Origin: a virus
Lineage: Duplodnaviria; Heunggongvirae; Uroviricota; Caudoviricetes
Length of the DNA: 35,451 nucleotides
Strand: one strand, 5' to 3'
IMG/VR virus record: IMGVR_UViG_2740892422_000002
Location: 1-35,451 of that record
Part shown: in pieces, positions 7,553 through 35,451 of the stretch
How the letters are laid out: the number at the start of each line of letters is the position of its first letter
How positions within the stretch are numbered: position 1 is the first letter of the stretch
Notes under the pieces: model-generated
What the model was told of the DNA's origin: nothing
Database searches by the model: none
The model's input: only the letters and a program-made list of their open reading frames with translations
Made by a program: the position numbers and the translations under genes

Positions 7553-8085
7553 ATGGGCGGTGATGTCTTCTCATTGTCGCCGTCCTTATGAATGTGTTTG
7601 ATGAAAGATTTACCGTTGATTGTGGCATCTGCAGTAAATTCACAGGGACCGACGAATTTCATTTGTTTACCGATAATATTCAGCAATTCGTCGGCGGTGA
7701 GATTTACCGTTTTCCCTGAAACGTTTAATTGTTCTCCTGTGATTTCAATAATTCCGCCTTTCTTTAACGTGATATGCGATTTACCGTCCTGGTGATACAG
7801 CCGGACATCACCGGGGGACAGGCCTTTCGGGCGACATCGCTTGTCCTCCACCGCGATGGCAACCAGCCCGTCACGCCGTCCGCCCACGGCCAGCACGATG
7901 GCTTCAGAACCTTCCGGCGGAACGGAAGTAAACCCGTAGTTCTGGAAGCGTTCCACGTCGTCGTCGGTGGCATCAGCCAGCGTCTGGATTTGCAGGTTCT
8001 GCCGCTCCAGACTGTCAGACACCATGCGCACAACGGCACGGTCAACCAGCAGCCGCAGACGGCGGGCAATTGCGTTTAATCCCAT
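7549..8085 (-). CDS. baseplate assembly/spike protein (Mu gp45-like)
   Basis: 178-aa ORF downstream of the gpD/P-like gene; synteny. Confidence 0.6.
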   Translation of the reverse strand: MGLNAIARRLRLLVDRAVVRMVSDSLERQNLQIQTLADATDDDVERFQNYGFTSVPPEGSEAIVLAVGGRRDGLVAIAVEDKRCRPKGLSPGDVRLYHQDGKSHITLKKGGIIEITGEQLNVSGKTVNLTADELLNIIGKQMKFVGPCEFTADATINGKSFIKHIHKDGDNEKTSPPI

Positions 8086-18779: not shown

Positions 18780-19544
18780 TTACTCACTGTCAAAACGGGC
18801 CTGTTTTGTCGCCAGCTGGCGTGCCAGCTCCTGCTCACGGTTTATACCGGGATTGTAGTTCCAGCCCGGATCAATCCCTTCCGGCACATCTTCCTCTTCG
18901 CCCGTGCGTTTGTTCACCCAGCGGACGGTTCTGATTTCCGGCGCTTCGGTGTGAATGGTGCCCTGTGCCGCCAGTTGCGCATACTCACCACGGCTGACCT
19001 GACGGATGGTGCATTTGCAGCCCCAGCCGTTAGGGGCAAAATGTGTCTGCCAGAACGGATGATCTACCGGCAGACACAGACGCGCCCATTTCACATGCTC
19101 CGCCCGGTGCTCGCGGGATGGCCCCAGCTCGTAAATCAGATACGGCATGGCCCGCTTTGTCCGTTGAATGCGTTCCCACTGGCCCGCCGCGCGGGCAGTG
19201 CGCATGTTGGTGTCAAAAATCGTACGGAGGCGGCGGTCGCTGCCCTGTTGCACGGTGCGGGTTTCACCCGTCAGCGGATCATCCATCTCCTGTACGCCCC
19301 ACCATCCGCGTTTTATCAGCAGCGGTTGCAGCGCCTCCCGGAACTCACTGAACGTCTGCCCGCTTTGCAGGGCGTCTTCCACAAGGGCTTTCACATCCGA
19401 CAACAAATCCAGTTGCAGCATTTTTGCCACGGTGAAGCTGTTCCGGTGCTCTTCCCGCCATACATCCCGGTAATCAAAACCGGGGCGCAGCTTCTTCGCC
19501 TTCAGCCACGCCAGCGCCTCTTTCGGGATGAGAGTTTCACGCAT
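18780..19544 (-). CDS. head morphogenesis protein (Mu F-like)
   Basis: 254-aa product from ATG at 19544 (MRETLIPKEALAWLK...); follows the portal gene. Confidence 0.8.
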   Translation of the reverse strand: MRETLIPKEALAWLKAKKLRPGFDYRDVWREEHRNSFTVAKMLQLDLLSDVKALVEDALQSGQTFSEFREALQPLLIKRGWWGVQEMDDPLTGETRTVQQGSDRRLRTIFDTNMRTARAAGQWERIQRTKRAMPYLIYELGPSREHRAEHVKWARLCLPVDHPFWQTHFAPNGWGCKCTIRQVSRGEYAQLAAQGTIHTEAPEIRTVRWVNKRTGEEEDVPEGIDPGWNYNPGINREQELARQLATKQARFDSE

Positions 19545-21108
19545 GAGCAGTGTCCCCCAGCACACGCGCCTTAAAGCACACCTCCGCCAGTTGCAGGGCA
19601 AAGTCGTCCGCGTTCAGCGTTTCCTGAAGCTCAGGCAGACGTTTCAGAAAGTCATCAAAACTGTCGCATTCCTGCGCCAGTGTCAGCACCGGGTTCGTGA
19701 ACGCCTCGCCGGTTTTCTGCCAGTCACGCAGGGCATCATCCACCATCTGTGCCAGTTCATCGGGGTGTTCACGGTTCAGGGCGACGCGCTCGCGGTTCAT
19801 CGCCATATCACCTGACATTCCGGCAGACACCGGATGCAGAACATCAGCCCCGTCGTCCGGTTCAGCCAGGCCGAACCGGTCCCGCAGCTCCGATTCCTGA
19901 ACCCGCATCCCCCGGTCAATCAGTGGCACCAGAGCGTCTGTCAGCGCCTTCAAATCTTCCGCTTCACTGATACGCAGAACAACACGGGGGTAGTGCGCCT
20001 GTGGCCCGTAGTTGGCCTCAATGTAGGGGCGTACCAGATATTCATTCAGCGTGTTAGCCAGCTGCCGCGCGTCCCAGCGCACAATGTCCATGCGCACCTG
20101 ATTGTGCACGTCCGCCTGTGAACGCGAACTGCCGTTATCCGTGGTCATGGTCTGCCCCAGCACGGCTTTACTGATTTGCGCATCACACCATTCCGCCATT
20201 TCACGGAACAGTGCGCCGCCGTTATTCCTGCTGGCGGTTTCCTTCATCTCCAGTTGCATGGACTGCGGAATGGCACACCCGGCATCCGAGGCAATGGAGG
20301 CAATCGCATCAATCAGCACGCGGATTTGCTCCTCCGTGGCGTTGGGACCGTATTTCCCCACCGTGACCGGAATGCCGAATTTTTCCGCAAATGCCCACCA
20401 GTCGCGCACGGTAAAGGATTTCAGCATGTACATCACCGCCACCAGACGGGCCAGACCGTTACGCAACGGCAGACCGGATTTCAGGCGCGGCTGGTGAACA
20501 ATGAATTTTCCCGGTGTCAGCGGTACGCCATCCACCGGTTCATCGTCCGTCAGCAGGCGGAACTGGCGCAGCGTGGGTTTTTCGGCTTTCAGAAAACGGG
20601 GATCAACCCATTCATAATCACGGGGCATCCAGTGGTTGTTGCGGGTGTCCCACAGGATTTCACAGACCGCCACGCCTTTTCCCAGCCCGTCGAGCAAATC
20701 AAACATCAGCTCAGGGATTTGCGGGGCTTCCATCAGCGCACGGATGGCGTCCGCCAGTTGCACGTCAGCATCGTCATCACTGGCGGCCACCACCACCGGT
20801 TCGATACCCGCCACCGTCAGCTTGCGGGTGCGCAGCACCGAGGCGTAATGCAAATCGCGTTCTTCCATCTCTTCAGCAAGGATAAAAAAATCACGTGTGA
20901 TGCCGTCGGCGGCATTGCGCAGAATGCCTGCCAGCCTGCCGGGGTTCAGCCCGGAGGCGACGCTGATACCCGGCGAGGCCGAACGCACACCGGCATGACG
21001 CGGACGGGCCTGTGCTTCGTTGAGCGCCTCTTTTTTCAGCGTGTCTTCCTCACCGGTTGCCGGGTTCAGCAGACGGCGAACGGCCCCGGCCAGTTGTTTC
21101 AGGTTCAC
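19537..21108 (-). CDS. portal protein (Mu H/gp29-like)
   Basis: 523-aa ORF with GTG start at 21108 preceded by GGGAGG RBS; GTGA overlap with terminase large stop. Confidence 0.85.
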   Translation of the reverse strand: MNLKQLAGAVRRLLNPATGEEDTLKKEALNEAQARPRHAGVRSASPGISVASGLNPGRLAGILRNAADGITRDFFILAEEMEERDLHYASVLRTRKLTVAGIEPVVVAASDDDADVQLADAIRALMEAPQIPELMFDLLDGLGKGVAVCEILWDTRNNHWMPRDYEWVDPRFLKAEKPTLRQFRLLTDDEPVDGVPLTPGKFIVHQPRLKSGLPLRNGLARLVAVMYMLKSFTVRDWWAFAEKFGIPVTVGKYGPNATEEQIRVLIDAIASIASDAGCAIPQSMQLEMKETASRNNGGALFREMAEWCDAQISKAVLGQTMTTDNGSSRSQADVHNQVRMDIVRWDARQLANTLNEYLVRPYIEANYGPQAHYPRVVLRISEAEDLKALTDALVPLIDRGMRVQESELRDRFGLAEPDDGADVLHPVSAGMSGDMAMNRERVALNREHPDELAQMVDDALRDWQKTGEAFTNPVLTLAQECDSFDDFLKRLPELQETLNADDFALQLAEVCFKARVLGDTAHA

Positions 21109-25698: not shown

Positions 25699-26283
25699 TC
25701 ACCCCCGCGTGGCGGACATGATGCCCAGAGGGGTAAGACAGGCGTCGGTCAGCTTTTCCATGCGGTTAAACCAGCCGTTCAGGTATTTGCCCTGGGCGGG
25801 TTTTGATTTGATGATGTCGGCATAAAAGCGGGAACGACGGACAATACAGCGGGCCAGCAGCCAGTCAGGGGTGGACTGGCTCACGGCCTTGCGGGTACGC
25901 GGCCCGATGATGCCGTCAGCATCCACATCAGCGGCCTCCTGCAAAAGTTTGATAGCCTTTTTAACGCCATGCTGAACCGCCGCATCAAACACAAAAAGCG
26001 CCACGCCATCAGGCCACTGGTCACACCCGGCAGGCAGCCAGTAATCGCGCCAGTAAATCTGCGCAACCTGTTCGCGGGTCAAATCCTTAATGCGGGTATC
26101 CGGTTTGCCGTCGCCGTTGACGTCGGTTTTGCCGTCAATCACACCGTCGCGGCGGTCAGAAATGCCGTATTTGGTTTCGCCGCCACGGTCAGTGGGGTCA
26201 TTGACATAGACGCCTTCGATATCGGGACGCAGAATGAAATTCAGCGCATGTTCAAAGGCCGGGGAGAATTTTTGATTTTCCAT
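25699..26283 (-). CDS. endolysin, glycoside hydrolase family 108-like with C-terminal peptidoglycan-binding domain
   Basis: 194-aa ORF; N-terminal ...ALNFILRPDIEGVYVNDPTDRGGETKYGIS... matches the GH108 catalytic motif; no signal or SAR sequence. Confidence 0.8.
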   Translation of the reverse strand: MENQKFSPAFEHALNFILRPDIEGVYVNDPTDRGGETKYGISDRRDGVIDGKTDVNGDGKPDTRIKDLTREQVAQIYWRDYWLPAGCDQWPDGVALFVFDAAVQHGVKKAIKLLQEAADVDADGIIGPRTRKAVSQSTPDWLLARCIVRRSRFYADIIKSKPAQGKYLNGWFNRMEKLTDACLTPLGIMSATRG

Positions 26284-26338
26284 AAAAGCACCTGTGAAGC
26301 AGATTTAAACGTGGTCTGCTTCATGGTGCCGGAGGCAT

Positions 26339-26362
26339 AAAAAAAGCCGGATTTACCGGCTT
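26339..26362 (-). terminator. Rho-independent terminator-like hairpin with U-tract (copy A of a duplicated element)
   Basis: Minus strand AAGCCGG-TAAAT-CCGGCTT followed by T-run; lies between the secreted-protein gene stop (26385) and the endolysin start (26283). Confidence 0.6.
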
Positions 26363-26384
26363 CATTGAATATAAGGTTATTGGT

Positions 26385-26882
26385 TCAGTTAACTTTACGG
26401 GCAGAACACGTAGTCTTCATTACTGAACGTTCAATTTTTATCTTCCAGCCATTTACTGTTTTTTCGACAGGATCATCTTCAGCTTGCTTTAAATTTTTAA
26501 CTTGCATGAAATTCAGCGGGGCTGGGGTATCATCGTCCCATGATGTCGGGCGAACATAATCAGGGACAACAAAAGGCTCAAAAACAGTTTCACATAAAGC
26601 AGACGTCATTTGAGCGAACTCGTCGCTATCGGGGCGAACCGGTCCTGTAACATACTGCATTTTTATGTTGATTTCGTTATCTCGCACAGACGTCTTTAAA
26701 TCCTGATATACACCTAAGTTAAATCCTTTAAACTCAGCAATGGCAGCGTCACCTTTACCGTACCAGTCGGTATAGTCAACGGATGTTTTTTTCTGAAAAA
26801 CATCTTTGACTTTTTGCTGGAATGTATCCGCCGCTTGTACAGTAGTAACAGTTAGTAAAAGAATAAGGGGAAGATATTTCAT
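26385..26882 (-). CDS. secreted/periplasmic protein of unknown function (AT-rich moron)
   Basis: 165-aa ORF with N-terminal signal peptide MKYLPLILLLTVTTVQA|AD; markedly AT-rich relative to flanking phage genes. Confidence 0.7.
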   Translation of the reverse strand: MKYLPLILLLTVTTVQAADTFQQKVKDVFQKKTSVDYTDWYGKGDAAIAEFKGFNLGVYQDLKTSVRDNEINIKMQYVTGPVRPDSDEFAQMTSALCETVFEPFVVPDYVRPTSWDDDTPAPLNFMQVKNLKQAEDDPVEKTVNGWKIKIERSVMKTTCSARKVN

Positions 26883-27280
26883 TGTTCGTCCTTAAATAGT
26901 TGCATTTGATATTTTCCACGCTCCAGTCGGCGCATTCTTTTGATGGCCTGATATACCGTTTTGTATGTCACTTTGTAACGCTGCACCAGCTCCGCTACGT
27001 TTTTCCCATCAAAATCACGCCAGATGCGCATGTCTCTGATAAGATTTTCCAGTATTTTCCCTTTCGGAACATATACCTGAATCCCACCGATATGATTGCA
27101 AATCGCCACTACCAGCTCAAGGGAGTGGGCAGGGTTAACTCCAAGCCTTATCAGCTCTTGTCGCAACAGAGCATTCAGCTCAGCCAGTAAAGATGGAAAT
27201 CCCGATTTTTCCTGAACATCATCAAAATATTCAAGGATACTGTCGTCCTGATAATCACCAAATAAATCCTGCTCTTTCAT
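26879..27280 (-). CDS. mor: Mor/C-family transcriptional activator
   Basis: 133-aa ORF with acidic N-terminus and C-terminal ...AHSLELVVAICNHIGGIQVYVPKG...YKTVYQAIKRMRR... resembling Mu Mor/C; located directly after the gemA-like gene. Confidence 0.7.
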   Translation of the reverse strand: MKEQDLFGDYQDDSILEYFDDVQEKSGFPSLLAELNALLRQELIRLGVNPAHSLELVVAICNHIGGIQVYVPKGKILENLIRDMRIWRDFDGKNVAELVQRYKVTYKTVYQAIKRMRRLERGKYQMQLFKDEQ

Positions 27281-27828
27281 AGAACTATTCTCCCGCTGTT
27301 TCTGGCGCGGGCATACGCACTGGTCAGTGCATCATATCCGCGCAGTTCCCGCCCGGTTTCGCTCACAGGTAAAGGCACGCCGTGTCGGGCAAAGGCTTCC
27401 CGAATGCAGCGCATATGCCACTGCTTGAGCGTTTCGAGCACAACCTGCAACGATTCCCCATGACACCAGGCCAGCGTGGAAACACCCTGACCACCATTAC
27501 GTCTGGCCGTCAGACGTTCAACGTATTTGTCCAGCGCGGCGTCGCTGATATCGGAGACGAAACCATCAAGAAACATCTGCTGCCAGATTTTATAAATCTT
27601 CTCGCGCGGTGTGACATGCCCCTTAAAGCGACGGCGGGGATGTTTTTTCTGCTTTTTAAAACCGCGCTCTTTCATGGCATCGAGCACTTGTTCCAGTTGT
27701 GCAACAGACAGCTCGCGGCAACTGGTTTTGCCCGTGCACTGCACCAGAAAAGCTCGGTAAGTGTCATCGTCGAGTTGCAACTCCCGACGGGCAACATGAA
27801 TTAATTTAATCAGGGATGTGCGGCTCAT
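27277..27828 (-). CDS. gemA: GemA-like early protein
   Basis: 183-aa ORF immediately upstream of mor, matching Mu gemA in position and size. Confidence 0.6.
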   Translation of the reverse strand: MSRTSLIKLIHVARRELQLDDDTYRAFLVQCTGKTSCRELSVAQLEQVLDAMKERGFKKQKKHPRRRFKGHVTPREKIYKIWQQMFLDGFVSDISDAALDKYVERLTARRNGGQGVSTLAWCHGESLQVVLETLKQWHMRCIREAFARHGVPLPVSETGRELRGYDALTSAYARARNSGRIVL

Positions 27829-33310: not shown

Positions 33311-33538
33311 TTATTCACCTGCTTGATATCGGCTAGGCCAGATGACTTCCGGTTTAGTTTCAAGGGCGTTAGCAATAATCTGTTCGCCCTTTGGCCAGTG
33401 CCGTTCTAGCGCATTAGCTAATGTTGTTGGCGCATAACCAAACTGCCGAGAAAGAGCTGATAAAGAGAGCTTTCTTTTCTTAAGTCCCGCAATCACATCA
33501 GCACGATGCCAATCACGGACCTTTTCGTTGGAACACAT
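33311..33538 (-). CDS. ner: Ner DNA-binding regulator (negative regulator of early transcription)
   Basis: 75-aa [55 protein letters not shown]...; matches Mu Ner. Confidence 0.9.
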
Positions 33539-33706
33539 TTAAAAACCCTCCTAAGTTTTGTAATCTATAAAGTTAGTAATTTAACTAAGTGCAAAAACTT
33601 AGTTTACTTGCCAAAAAGATAAATACTGAAAAGTCTTTTGTAAAGTAACTTTTCAGTATTGTTGGGTGTATTTTGTTTATCACATTGAAAAATAAGGGTT
33701 TAAATT
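33539..33706. promoter_or_regulatory. divergent early/repressor promoter and operator region (also the expected position of the transposition enhancer)
   Basis: AT-rich intergenic between divergent ner (-) and c (+); 13-bp inverted repeat AATACTGAAAAGT/ACTTTTCAGTATT (33622..33634 and 33648..33660) and repeated GAAAAGT motifs. Confidence 0.7.
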
Positions 33707-34297
33707 TTGAAAAGTAACTTTACAGAATCCACTGATACTAAAAAGTCAATCTGGTGTACGCCGCAAGAAATTATGGCTGCTGATGGTATGCCTGGATCTG
33801 TTGCAGGTGTTCACTATCGGGCAAATGTTCAAGGCTGGACAAAGCGAAAAAAGGAAGGTGTGAAGGGGGGAAAAGCAGTTGAATACGATGTGATGTCTAT
33901 GCCCACCAAAGAACGAGAGCAAGTTATTGCACACCTAGGTCTGTCTATTCCTGGCACTGCTGCTCAAGCTAATGAGCAGCAGGATTCTTCGGAGCTGATA
34001 AACAAATTAACCACAACCTTAATCAATATGATTGAAGAACTGGAACCAGATGAAGCACGTAAGGCACTGAAACTTTTAAGCAAAGGTGGACTATTGGCGT
34101 TAATGCCACTTGTATTTAATGAACAGAAACTTTACAGCTTTATAGGATTTTCACAGCAAAGTATCCAGACGTTGATGATGCTAGATGCATTACCTGAAGA
34201 AAAACGCAAAGAGATTTTGTCAAAGTATGGGATTAATGAACAGGAGAGCCTTGTAGCTCCTTTGCAGGATCCACAAGATGTAAAAAAAGCCGTATAA
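33707..34297 (+). CDS. c: Mu-type repressor c
   Basis: 196-aa ORF (M)KSNFTESTDTKKSIWCTPQEIMAADGMPGSVAGVHYRANVQGW...; matches Mu repressor; begins with TTG at 33707 immediately after an in-frame stop. Confidence 0.88.
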   Translation: MKSNFTESTDTKKSIWCTPQEIMAADGMPGSVAGVHYRANVQGWTKRKKEGVKGGKAVEYDVMSMPTKEREQVIAHLGLSIPGTAAQANEQQDSSELINKLTTTLINMIEELEPDEARKALKLLSKGGLLALMPLVFNEQKLYSFIGFSQQSIQTLMMLDALPEEKRKEILSKYGINEQESLVAPLQDPQDVKKAV

Positions 34298-34456: not shown

Positions 34457-34636
34457 GCAACTGCTTTTCGTATGTTTAATGAAACAAAAGCCATTTCTAA
34501 CAATCTTTCGCGTTTCAATGCTTAACGGCTAAAATTTGTTCTACAGGCTTGCAAGCCCCACCAAATCTAATCCCGTCAAATCCCGAATAATCCAATATCC
34601 TCCCGGTTTTTTTCGTACTTCTCGTGAATCAATACA
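34457..34636 (-). other. Mu left-end (attL) region with terminal MuA-binding sites; terminus at 34636
   Basis: Minus strand from 34636 reads TGTATTGATTCACGAGAAGTACGAAAAAAACCGGGAGGATATTGGATTATTCGGGATTTGACGGGATTAGATTTGG..., matching the Mu left end with a few substitutions. Confidence 0.85.
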
Positions 34637-35451
34637 CCGGTGATGAGCAGGTTGAGGTGCTGAAGGGCATCAGCCTCGATATTTATGCGGGTGAGATGGT
34701 CGCGATTGTTGGCGCTTCGGGTTCCGGTAAATCGACCCTGATGAATATTCTCGGCTGTCTGGATAAGGCCACCAGCGGCACCTATCGCGTCGCCGGTCAG
34801 GATGTTGCCACGCTGGACGCCGATGCGCTGGCGCAACTGCGCCGCGAGCATTTCGGCTTTATTTTCCAGCGTTACCATTTGCTTTCGCATTTAACCGCCG
34901 AGCAGAACGTTGAAGTACCCGCCGTCTATGCTGGTCTTGAGCGGAAACAGCGACTGCTTCGTGCCCAGGAGTTGCTGCAACGGCTGGGGCTGGAAGACCG
35001 TACAGAGTATTATCCGGCACAGCTTTCGGGTGGTCAGCAACAGCGCGTCAGCATCGCGCGGGCATTGATGAACGGTGGTCAGGTAATTCTTGCCGATGAA
35101 CCAACCGGCGCACTGGACAGCCATTCTGGCGAAGAGGTGATGGCGATCCTGCATCAGCTGCGCGATCGTGGGCATACGGTGATTATCGTCACCCACGATC
35201 CGCAGGTCGCTGCTCAGGCCGAGCGGGTGATCGAAATTCGCGACGGCGAAATTGTGCGCAATCCTCCCGCCATTGAAAAAGTGAATGTTACTGGCGGGAC
35301 GGAACCTGTTGTCAACACGGTGTCTGGCTGGCGGCAGTTTGTCAGCGGTTTTAACGAGGCGCTGACGATGGCATGGCGGGCGCTGGCAGCGAATAAAATG
35401 CGTACTTTACTGACCATGCTGGGGATTATTATCGGTATTGCGTCGGTGGTT
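34637..35451 (+). pseudogene. macB: macB (macrolide ABC transporter ATP-binding/permease), 3' portion only; gene interrupted by the prophage and running off the window end
   Basis: In-frame translation from 34639: [56 protein letters not shown]...[15 protein letters not shown]...[11 protein letters not shown]..., i.e. the ABC ATPase domain of E. coli MacB beginning around codon 18. Confidence 0.85.

Follow-up and report, generated by a model that had tools for sequence, protein, structure and literature searches.

The middle promoter Pm of phage Mu is the closest described counterpart of the element discussed here. [quoted passage not shown] The element is centered at -43.5 and takes the place of the -35, with the dyad running from -51 to -36 and the footprint from -56 to -36 (PMC4390567, PMC4287176). 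In the GenBank record AF083977 the promoter reads CAGTAAAGCCGGTTAATCCGGCTTTTTTTACGTCCTCAATATCCT (middle-promoter region CAGTAAAGCCGGTTAATCCGGCTTTTTTTACGTCCTCAATATCCTG); positions 9163-9233 of the record are annotated as the Mor-activated middle promoter, and positions 9179-9200 within it as a terminator, a TransTermHP prediction. When the numbering on the Mu sequence is fixed by the published mutations -57G and -54A (PMC4390567), the layout of Pm becomes AGTAA-AGCCGG-TTAAT at -51..-36, CCGGC at -35..-31, seven T (T7) at -30..-24 and TATCCT at -13..-8. Mu has a single copy of this promoter, which drives the middle operon encoding C.

Two further promoters of Mu, Plys and PI, depend on C and stand before lys and I, respectively. 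They too have a dyad at -43.5 in place of the -35, and each is preceded by a terminator, so that terminator and promoter are found side by side. Another group worth comparing is that of the Mu-like phages of the Pasteurellaceae, 3927AP2, phiMhaMu2 and SuMu, in which lys lies directly downstream of mor and C is missing (PMC4553209). Promoters of these C-less phages are described neither in PMC4553209 nor in the SuMu paper.

The prophage and its duplicated element

The window, by which we mean the entire stretch of 35,451 nucleotides that was analysed, is a Mu-like prophage that is found with 100% identity in E. coli ETEC1732 (NZ_CP122823). Relatives of it are present in about 50 complete E. coli genomes, and a megablast search of the phage collection with 10 kb returned a single weak match, to a Klebsiella phage. 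The phage genes are on the minus strand (a repressor gene at 33707-34297 is listed as plus), in the order transposase A, B, GemA (27277-27828), Mor, ORF165, copy 1 of the element, lys, terminase, portal, F (18780-19601), copy 2, I and T. The first gene of operon 1 is lys (25699..26283), which encodes a GH108 endolysin, and the first gene of operon 2 is I (17604..18566), which encodes a Mu-type head protease/scaffold.

Several features at the periphery of this map deserve a brief mention. Beyond the repressor gene, where Mu has its left end, there are three small ORFs on the minus strand (34576-35417). At the opposite edge, positions 1-48 of the plus strand match the Rfam family RNA-OUT, the IS10 antisense RNA, with 56.9 bits in a match cut by the window edge, and this IS10 end adjoins the tail-fibre end of the prophage. 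Directly 3' of the major capsid gene T, at 16621-16701 on the minus strand, lies a long hairpin, GCAGTTAAAAGG...CCTTTTAACTGC followed by CTTTTAAAA, which has the look of a partial terminator.

The Mor homologue, encoded at 26879..27280 on the minus strand (Pfam Mor, E=6.6e-30), is the presumed reader of the sites described below. Its sequence shares 63% identity with Mu Mor and 32% with Mu C. A tblastn search of the window found no second gene of the Mor/C family, and a C gene is absent. ORF165 (26385-26882, minus strand), situated between mor and the lys promoter, was tested as a hidden C and rejected: Pfam and PHROG give no match for it, tblastn shows no resemblance to C, and its presence varies among relatives. 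There it is either absent or swapped for unrelated sequence, a variable cassette that closes the early operon.

An earlier, sequence-only reading of this DNA had pointed out a 26-mer, AAAAAAAGCCGGATTTACCGGCTTCA on the plus strand, that occurs in two identical copies, and the duplicate was reproduced. Copy 1 is at 26339..26364, 20 nt 3' of the ORF165 stop, and copy 2 at 18616..18641, 139 nt 3' of the stop of the F-like gene and within the 213-nt gap between F and I. These are the only exact copies in the window; there is no third match with up to 3 mismatches, and dinucleotide-preserving shuffles gave 0 matches in 100. On the transcribed minus strand the 26-mer reads TGAAGCCGG-TAAAT-CCGGCTT+TTTTT, and a terminator scan flags both loci. 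The terminator shape that had been claimed for this strand was borne out when the folding was run: the arms GAAGCCGG and CCGGCTT form an 8-bp GC stem around the 5-nt loop TAAAT, with seven T directly 3' of the hairpin, and the folding energy of -12.6 kcal/mol was equalled by 0 of 200 shuffles. The distance to the two gene starts, given before as about 50 nt, was measured from the end of the T-run to the ATG as 55 nt for lys (26283) and 49 nt for I (18566). The two loci also resemble each other well beyond the 26 nucleotides, over some 49 nt that can be written as TTCAnTGAAGCCGGTAAATCCGGCTTTTTTTnTGCCTyCsGCAnnnTGA, of which nTGCCTyCsGCAnnnTGA lies past the T-run. The suggestion that the element marks the entries of two late operons as a functional duplicate, and not by chance, is upheld.

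What kind of control the element exerts is a separate matter. The earlier proposal was that both copies are intrinsic terminators, and that late control works by regulated termination or antitermination, or through a shared RNA leader structure. A canonical hairpin with a U-run at both sites speaks for this proposal. On the other hand, an Rfam scan of both 26-mer sites matched no family, Pfam and PHROG scans, which covered only the genes around both elements and the baseplate and tail-fibre genes, turned up no antiterminator protein, and no evidence for antitermination was found. One could also imagine that the copies are plain, unregulated terminators, made identical by a recent duplication or gene conversion, and that the late promoters are located elsewhere. 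All 26 of 26 bases are indeed identical, and upstream genes precede both copies. The 49-55 nt left before the start codons, however, are too short for another promoter, and a sigma-70 scan finds none.

Comparison with the Mu middle promoter

Both copies align with Mu Pm without a gap. A 33-nt core shows 3-4 differences, and the alignment brings the -10 hexamers into register. The putative lys promoter consists of AATGA-AGCCGG-TAAAT, CCGGC, T7, ATGCCTCCGG and CACCAT, and the putative I promoter of AGTGA-AGCCGG-TAAAT, CCGGC, T7, CTGCCTTCCG and CATACT. In each of them the 26-mer also makes up the -35 side and the spacer, with CCGGC at -35..-31 and T7 at -30..-24. The imperfect dyads predicted to bind Mor are at 26351..26366 for lys and at 18628..18643 for I, both on the minus strand. 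Their scores were 30.9 and 29.7, respectively, with a position weight matrix (PWM) built from the -52..-34 segments, for which the shuffle maximum was 14.4. The half-sites of the lys promoter differ from those of Mu Pm at -50, -48 and -39, and those of the I promoter at -48 and -39 only.

The spacing is conserved as well. The end of the dyad is separated from the -10 hexamer by 22 bp in Mu and in both copies of the window, and the distance from TWAATCC to CACCAT of lys is 20 nt, the same as to TATCCT in Mu Pm. The hexamers occupy 26323..26328 (CACCAT, Mu-equivalent -13..-8) and 18600..18605 (CATACT) on the minus strand, and the transcription starts predicted by homology are near 26315 and 18592. 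Both are weak -10s, with 3-4 of 6 matches, which keep A2 and T6. No -35 accompanies them: TCCGGC, CCGGCT and ATCCGG match TTGACA at no more than 2 of 6 positions, and the sigma-70 scan finds no full promoter there. Another hexamer of the lys leader, TTAAAT, was tried as the -10 and set aside: nothing corresponds to it before I or in relatives, and the dyad would then be at about -57.

These features bear on all of the explanations considered. The homologous sequence in Mu is a mapped activator-dependent promoter, which counts against antitermination, and the match of the element to the experimentally defined Mor-binding core of Mu Pm argues that the control acts on DNA, via an activator. The earlier idea that the control point is regulated termination, antitermination or a shared RNA structure is therefore not supported. 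Duplication or gene conversion fares no better, since the flanking similarity follows the Mu Pm pattern of dyad left half, spacer and -10 instead of extending as a block. With the additional finding given below, that the 26-mer is invariant among the E. coli-group relatives retrieved while its flanks vary, we consider plain duplicated terminators highly improbable. A dyad is, of course, a generic feature of sites for dimeric regulators, and it could be the operator of some other DNA-binding protein, be it the repressor, Ner or a host factor. This we hold to be extremely unlikely, given the near-identity to the footprinted Mor site of Mu, the covariation of the dyad with Mor residues described in the next section, and a PWM scan that found no related sequence in the repressor/Ner operator region (33520-33720).

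In our opinion, it is very likely that at each copy the core of a promoter of the Pm type, dependent on sigma-70 and Mor, is superimposed on an intrinsic terminator. The likeness to Mu Pm comprises the dyad architecture, CCGGC followed by T7, the distance to the -10, the lack of a -35, the overlapping hairpin and the orthologous Mor. The number of copies and the genes served are different: in place of the one copy ahead of the C-encoding middle operon of Mu, there are two here (possibly three), ahead of late operons, and no C. With no C gene and a single Mor-like protein in the window, Mor most likely switches on the lys and I operons with no intermediate. The promoter wiring thus differs from that of Mu, in that lys and I are served and not the C operon, but the type of promoter does not.

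The likeness to Plys and PI of Mu is of another kind. The map positions before lys and I agree, and so does a dyad at -43.5 that replaces the -35, but the Mu promoters are read by C, of which the window has no homologue, and their sequences differ. Terminator and promoter, which are neighbors in Plys and PI, are superimposed here. With 3927AP2, phiMhaMu2 and SuMu, as these phages have been described, the prophage shares the mor-lys order, the absence of C and the GH108 endolysin.

The DNA just upstream of the I promoter has some structure of its own. A small GC hairpin, GGGGGTATTTCCCC followed by GTTTTC, is found at 18650..18663 on the minus strand, directly upstream of the dyad, and many distant relatives also have a GC hairpin of this sort, with GTTT(A/T)C after it. 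By its sequence, it may terminate the lys-head operon and, at the same time, supply a T-rich stretch equivalent to the alpha-CTD site of Mu Pm. Further upstream, at 18663-18705 (minus strand), there are three direct repeats of TTTTGAAG, with TTTTCAGTGAAG at the dyad in addition. The TGAAG/TTTTGAAG repeats were dismissed as a recognized motif, because the coding strand is generally rich in TGAAG (79 versus 34).

A candidate for a third promoter of the Pm type was found on the minus strand at 7673..7718, inside the gp45-like baseplate gene and upstream of the gp46-like gene. It consists of CAGGGAAAACGGTAAATCT at 7718..7700, 21 nt, and TATTAT at 7678..7673, and is without a hairpin. Its PWM score of 19.5 exceeds the shuffle maximum of 14.4. 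Relatives keep the site, down to the use of rare ATA codons by which a -10-like hexamer containing ATA is maintained; as the site is within a coding region, part of this conservation is due to protein constraint. Wherever the lys, I and third sites are all readable in one genome, their variable bases agree. It probably serves the baseplate and fibre genes as an internal promoter, though the support is weaker here than at lys and I.

Conservation among relatives and the residues of Mor

To see which parts of the element are held constant, relatives were collected by a scan with the large terminase, which gave 80 IMG/VR viral contigs with terminases 59-100% identical and with the synteny kept. 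In every E. coli-group relative retrieved, both copies of the 26-mer are invariant and the bases flanking them vary. Among the mosaic relatives the conservation begins at about -55, which is the upstream edge of the Mor footprint in Mu, regardless of which gene lies upstream.

The two positions differ in what they preserve. Where Mor is at least 58% identical, all lys-proximal copies retain the full 8-bp stem and the T-run; the lys variants also have nAnnnT at the place of the -10 in nearly all cases, a few of them reading it 1 nt later. Before I, the full hairpin is kept in the E. coli group and a few others, and the right arm and the T-run are lost in about 15 of about 27 distinct variants, for example GTGAAGCCGGTTAATCCACCTGAGTCCCCGTTTCCCCCCACACTG. 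These hairpin-less variants retain the dyad, the CC that follows it, and an nAnnnT hexamer 20-21 nt downstream. The -10s found before I in the relatives are CATACT, CACACT or GACACT, 20-21 nt after TWAATCC. A search of related prophages, which had been suggested in the sequence-only reading as a check, therefore came out in part as expected: the copies before lys do keep the hairpin, but many of those before I keep only the dyad and the -10.

Because the I copies can lose the hairpin and still keep the dyad and the -10, the conserved function appears to be the promoter, and the terminator an added role. That the lys copy always has its hairpin and T-run would be explained by its position at the end of the early operon, as in Mu. 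An RNA hairpin element would not tolerate the loss of one arm, so control through a shared RNA structure is not supported, and the Rfam scan was empty as well.

The occurrence of the sequence was also surveyed with one genome per species. The pattern RAAGCCGGTWAATCCGGCTTTTT gave 86 occurrences, of which 80 were fetched and examined. Fifteen of the 80 have Mu-like proteins nearby, and all of these are in the mor-lys or the F-I gap of Enterobacterales prophages, in Klebsiella, Raoultella, Trabulsiella, Brenneria, Serratia, Pluralibacter and Kluyvera. In relatives whose Mor is only 31-40% identical, GTTAATCC and then a C-rich run stand before lys and I, with a different spacing to -10-like sequences; this clade may have a different promoter architecture for its divergent Mor/C protein.

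The bases that vary within the dyad do so together with residues of the helix-turn-helix of Mor. In the segment AI(K/R)RMRR of the protein, K is found with A at -39 and R with T, in 48 and 29 concordant cases, respectively, and 6 discordant ones, mostly I promoters in apparent mosaic recombinants. In the segment VT(YK/FN)TVY, the pair YK accompanies G at -48 and FN accompanies A, with 75 and 8 concordant cases and none discordant. These counts include related and mosaic genomes, so that the independent events are few. Mu itself, with FN and R in its Mor and with A at -48 and T at -39, obeys the same pattern, and the differences between its half-sites and those of the window are in step with the changes in Mor. 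The lys site is physically linked to mor, and its concordance is conceivable without function; the I site, about 8 kb from mor, follows the same rule. The covariation points to a site that is read on DNA. From these sequences it suggests a simple recognition code for Mor, in which K or R of the helix would read A or T at -39, and YK or FN would read G or A at -48.

Such covariation is not what antitermination would lead one to expect, nor is the loss of the hairpin and T-run from many I-proximal copies in which the left arm and the loop persist, together with a -10 whose spacing is fixed. Late control by regulated termination, antitermination or a shared leader structure is in our judgment very unlikely. 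The homology to Pm, the orthologous Mor, the pattern of conservation and the covariation of protein and DNA, on the other hand, can all be seen in the sequences compared, and they agree with a promoter that Mor would read.

Termination, leader pairing and a proposed circuit

A promoter of the Pm type does not preclude that the hairpin also terminates transcription. The remaining 65 of the genomes examined above, many of them Bacteroidota and some Pantoea, have the same hairpin with no Mu-like proteins nearby. In 83% of these it lies within 60 nt 3' of an ORF stop, compared with 8.6% for random positions, which makes the hairpin an ordinary gene-end terminator elsewhere. In these genomes the hairpin looks like a plain terminator that is either shared or has arisen by convergence; its use at gene ends in unrelated bacteria could be cited in favor of antitermination as well. 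For the copies of the window, a real terminator function is what we infer from the canonical energy and U-run, the proximity to the ORF165 stop and the gene-end use in other genomes. Termination at the hairpin of Mu is predicted, from the TransTermHP annotation in GenBank and from what we take to be the Mu early terminator at about 9.2 kb.

The leaders that follow the two T-runs contain another recurrent feature. In the lys leader (26284..26337, minus strand) the bases at about -24 to -8, the -10 among them, are complementary to the Shine-Dalgarno sequence and the AUG, with an inner hairpin GAAGCAGA...TCTGCTTC, and the I leader (18567-18615, minus strand) has the same anti-Shine-Dalgarno complementarity. 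An inverted repeat that starts at or just after the -10 is present in every lys and I promoter examined and also in Mu Pm. The complementarity to the Shine-Dalgarno/AUG region is made up of differing pairs in at least four lineages (GCACC/GGTGC, CGGCAC/GTGCCG, ATGCCTG/CAGGCAT, CCGGAA/TTCCGG and TCGGCA/TGCCGA), and Mu Pm has the same layout, with TGATGA...TCATCA. For the lys leaders, the duplex of matched 5' and 3' arms has a mean energy of -11.3 kcal/mol, against -8.0 kcal/mol for arms paired across lineages; in 5000 permutations the matched value was not attained once.

With its 5' arm upstream of the start predicted for the promoter, this structure is possible in read-through RNA only. Leaked early RNA would then be translationally silent, and Mor-initiated RNA, which is without the 5' arm, would be translated. 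A crude test of the pairing probability of the Shine-Dalgarno sequence in promoter-initiated versus read-through RNA gave 0.50 versus 0.90 for I, which supports silencing, and 0.72 versus 0.79 for lys. A comparable arrangement is known from IS10 and IS50. There the ribosome-binding site is paired with sequence from upstream of the start site of the element itself, and the translational silencing is confined to RNA initiated outside. The leader pairing is alike in the two cases, but the element and the genes differ, and for the prophage it is a hypothesis drawn from covariation. Further conserved RNA pairing downstream in the leaders would also suit control by antitermination. Returning to the Pm-type promoter, we put forward with some hesitation that the fold-back may be a third insulating layer in the promoter-terminator module, alongside a Mor recognition code; this combined proposal comes from sequence comparison and has somewhat less than an even chance of being right.

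If Mor binding, the start sites and actual termination are as we infer, the circuit may be pictured as follows. Early transcription would start from a promoter on the Ner side, pass through A, B, gemA, mor and ORF165, and stop at copy 1. As Mor accumulates, its dimer would bind the A(A/G)TGA-AGCCGG-TAAAT dyads (Mu-equivalent -51..-36) in place of the missing -35 and recruit the host RNA polymerase to CACCAT at lys and CATACT at I. Transcription would begin at lys for the lysis/packaging operon, at I for the head operon, and probably inside the gp45-like gene. In RNA that reads in from upstream, GAAGCCGG-UAAAU-CCGGCUU with its U's would fold into the -12.6 kcal/mol terminator, and copy 2 together with the small GC hairpin at 18650-18663 would stop the transcripts of the lys operon before I. 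With upstream transcripts stopped at the hairpins, the late operons would fire only with Mor. The cascade would have two steps and no C protein, as opposed to the three steps in Mu.

For the C-less Mu-like prophages that are widespread in E. coli and other Enterobacterales, this amounts to a testable circuit, from the early operon to Mor and from Mor to the late operons. It would also mean that some 30 bp can be the stop signal of one operon and the activator-dependent start of the next. The natural variation of Mor and its sites may serve as a ready-made set of specificity swaps for the Mor/C family, for whose activation complexes cryo-EM work has recently been posted as a preprint. For the annotation of Mu-like prophages, hairpins of this kind before lys or I would be read as Mor-dependent promoters, and not only as terminators.
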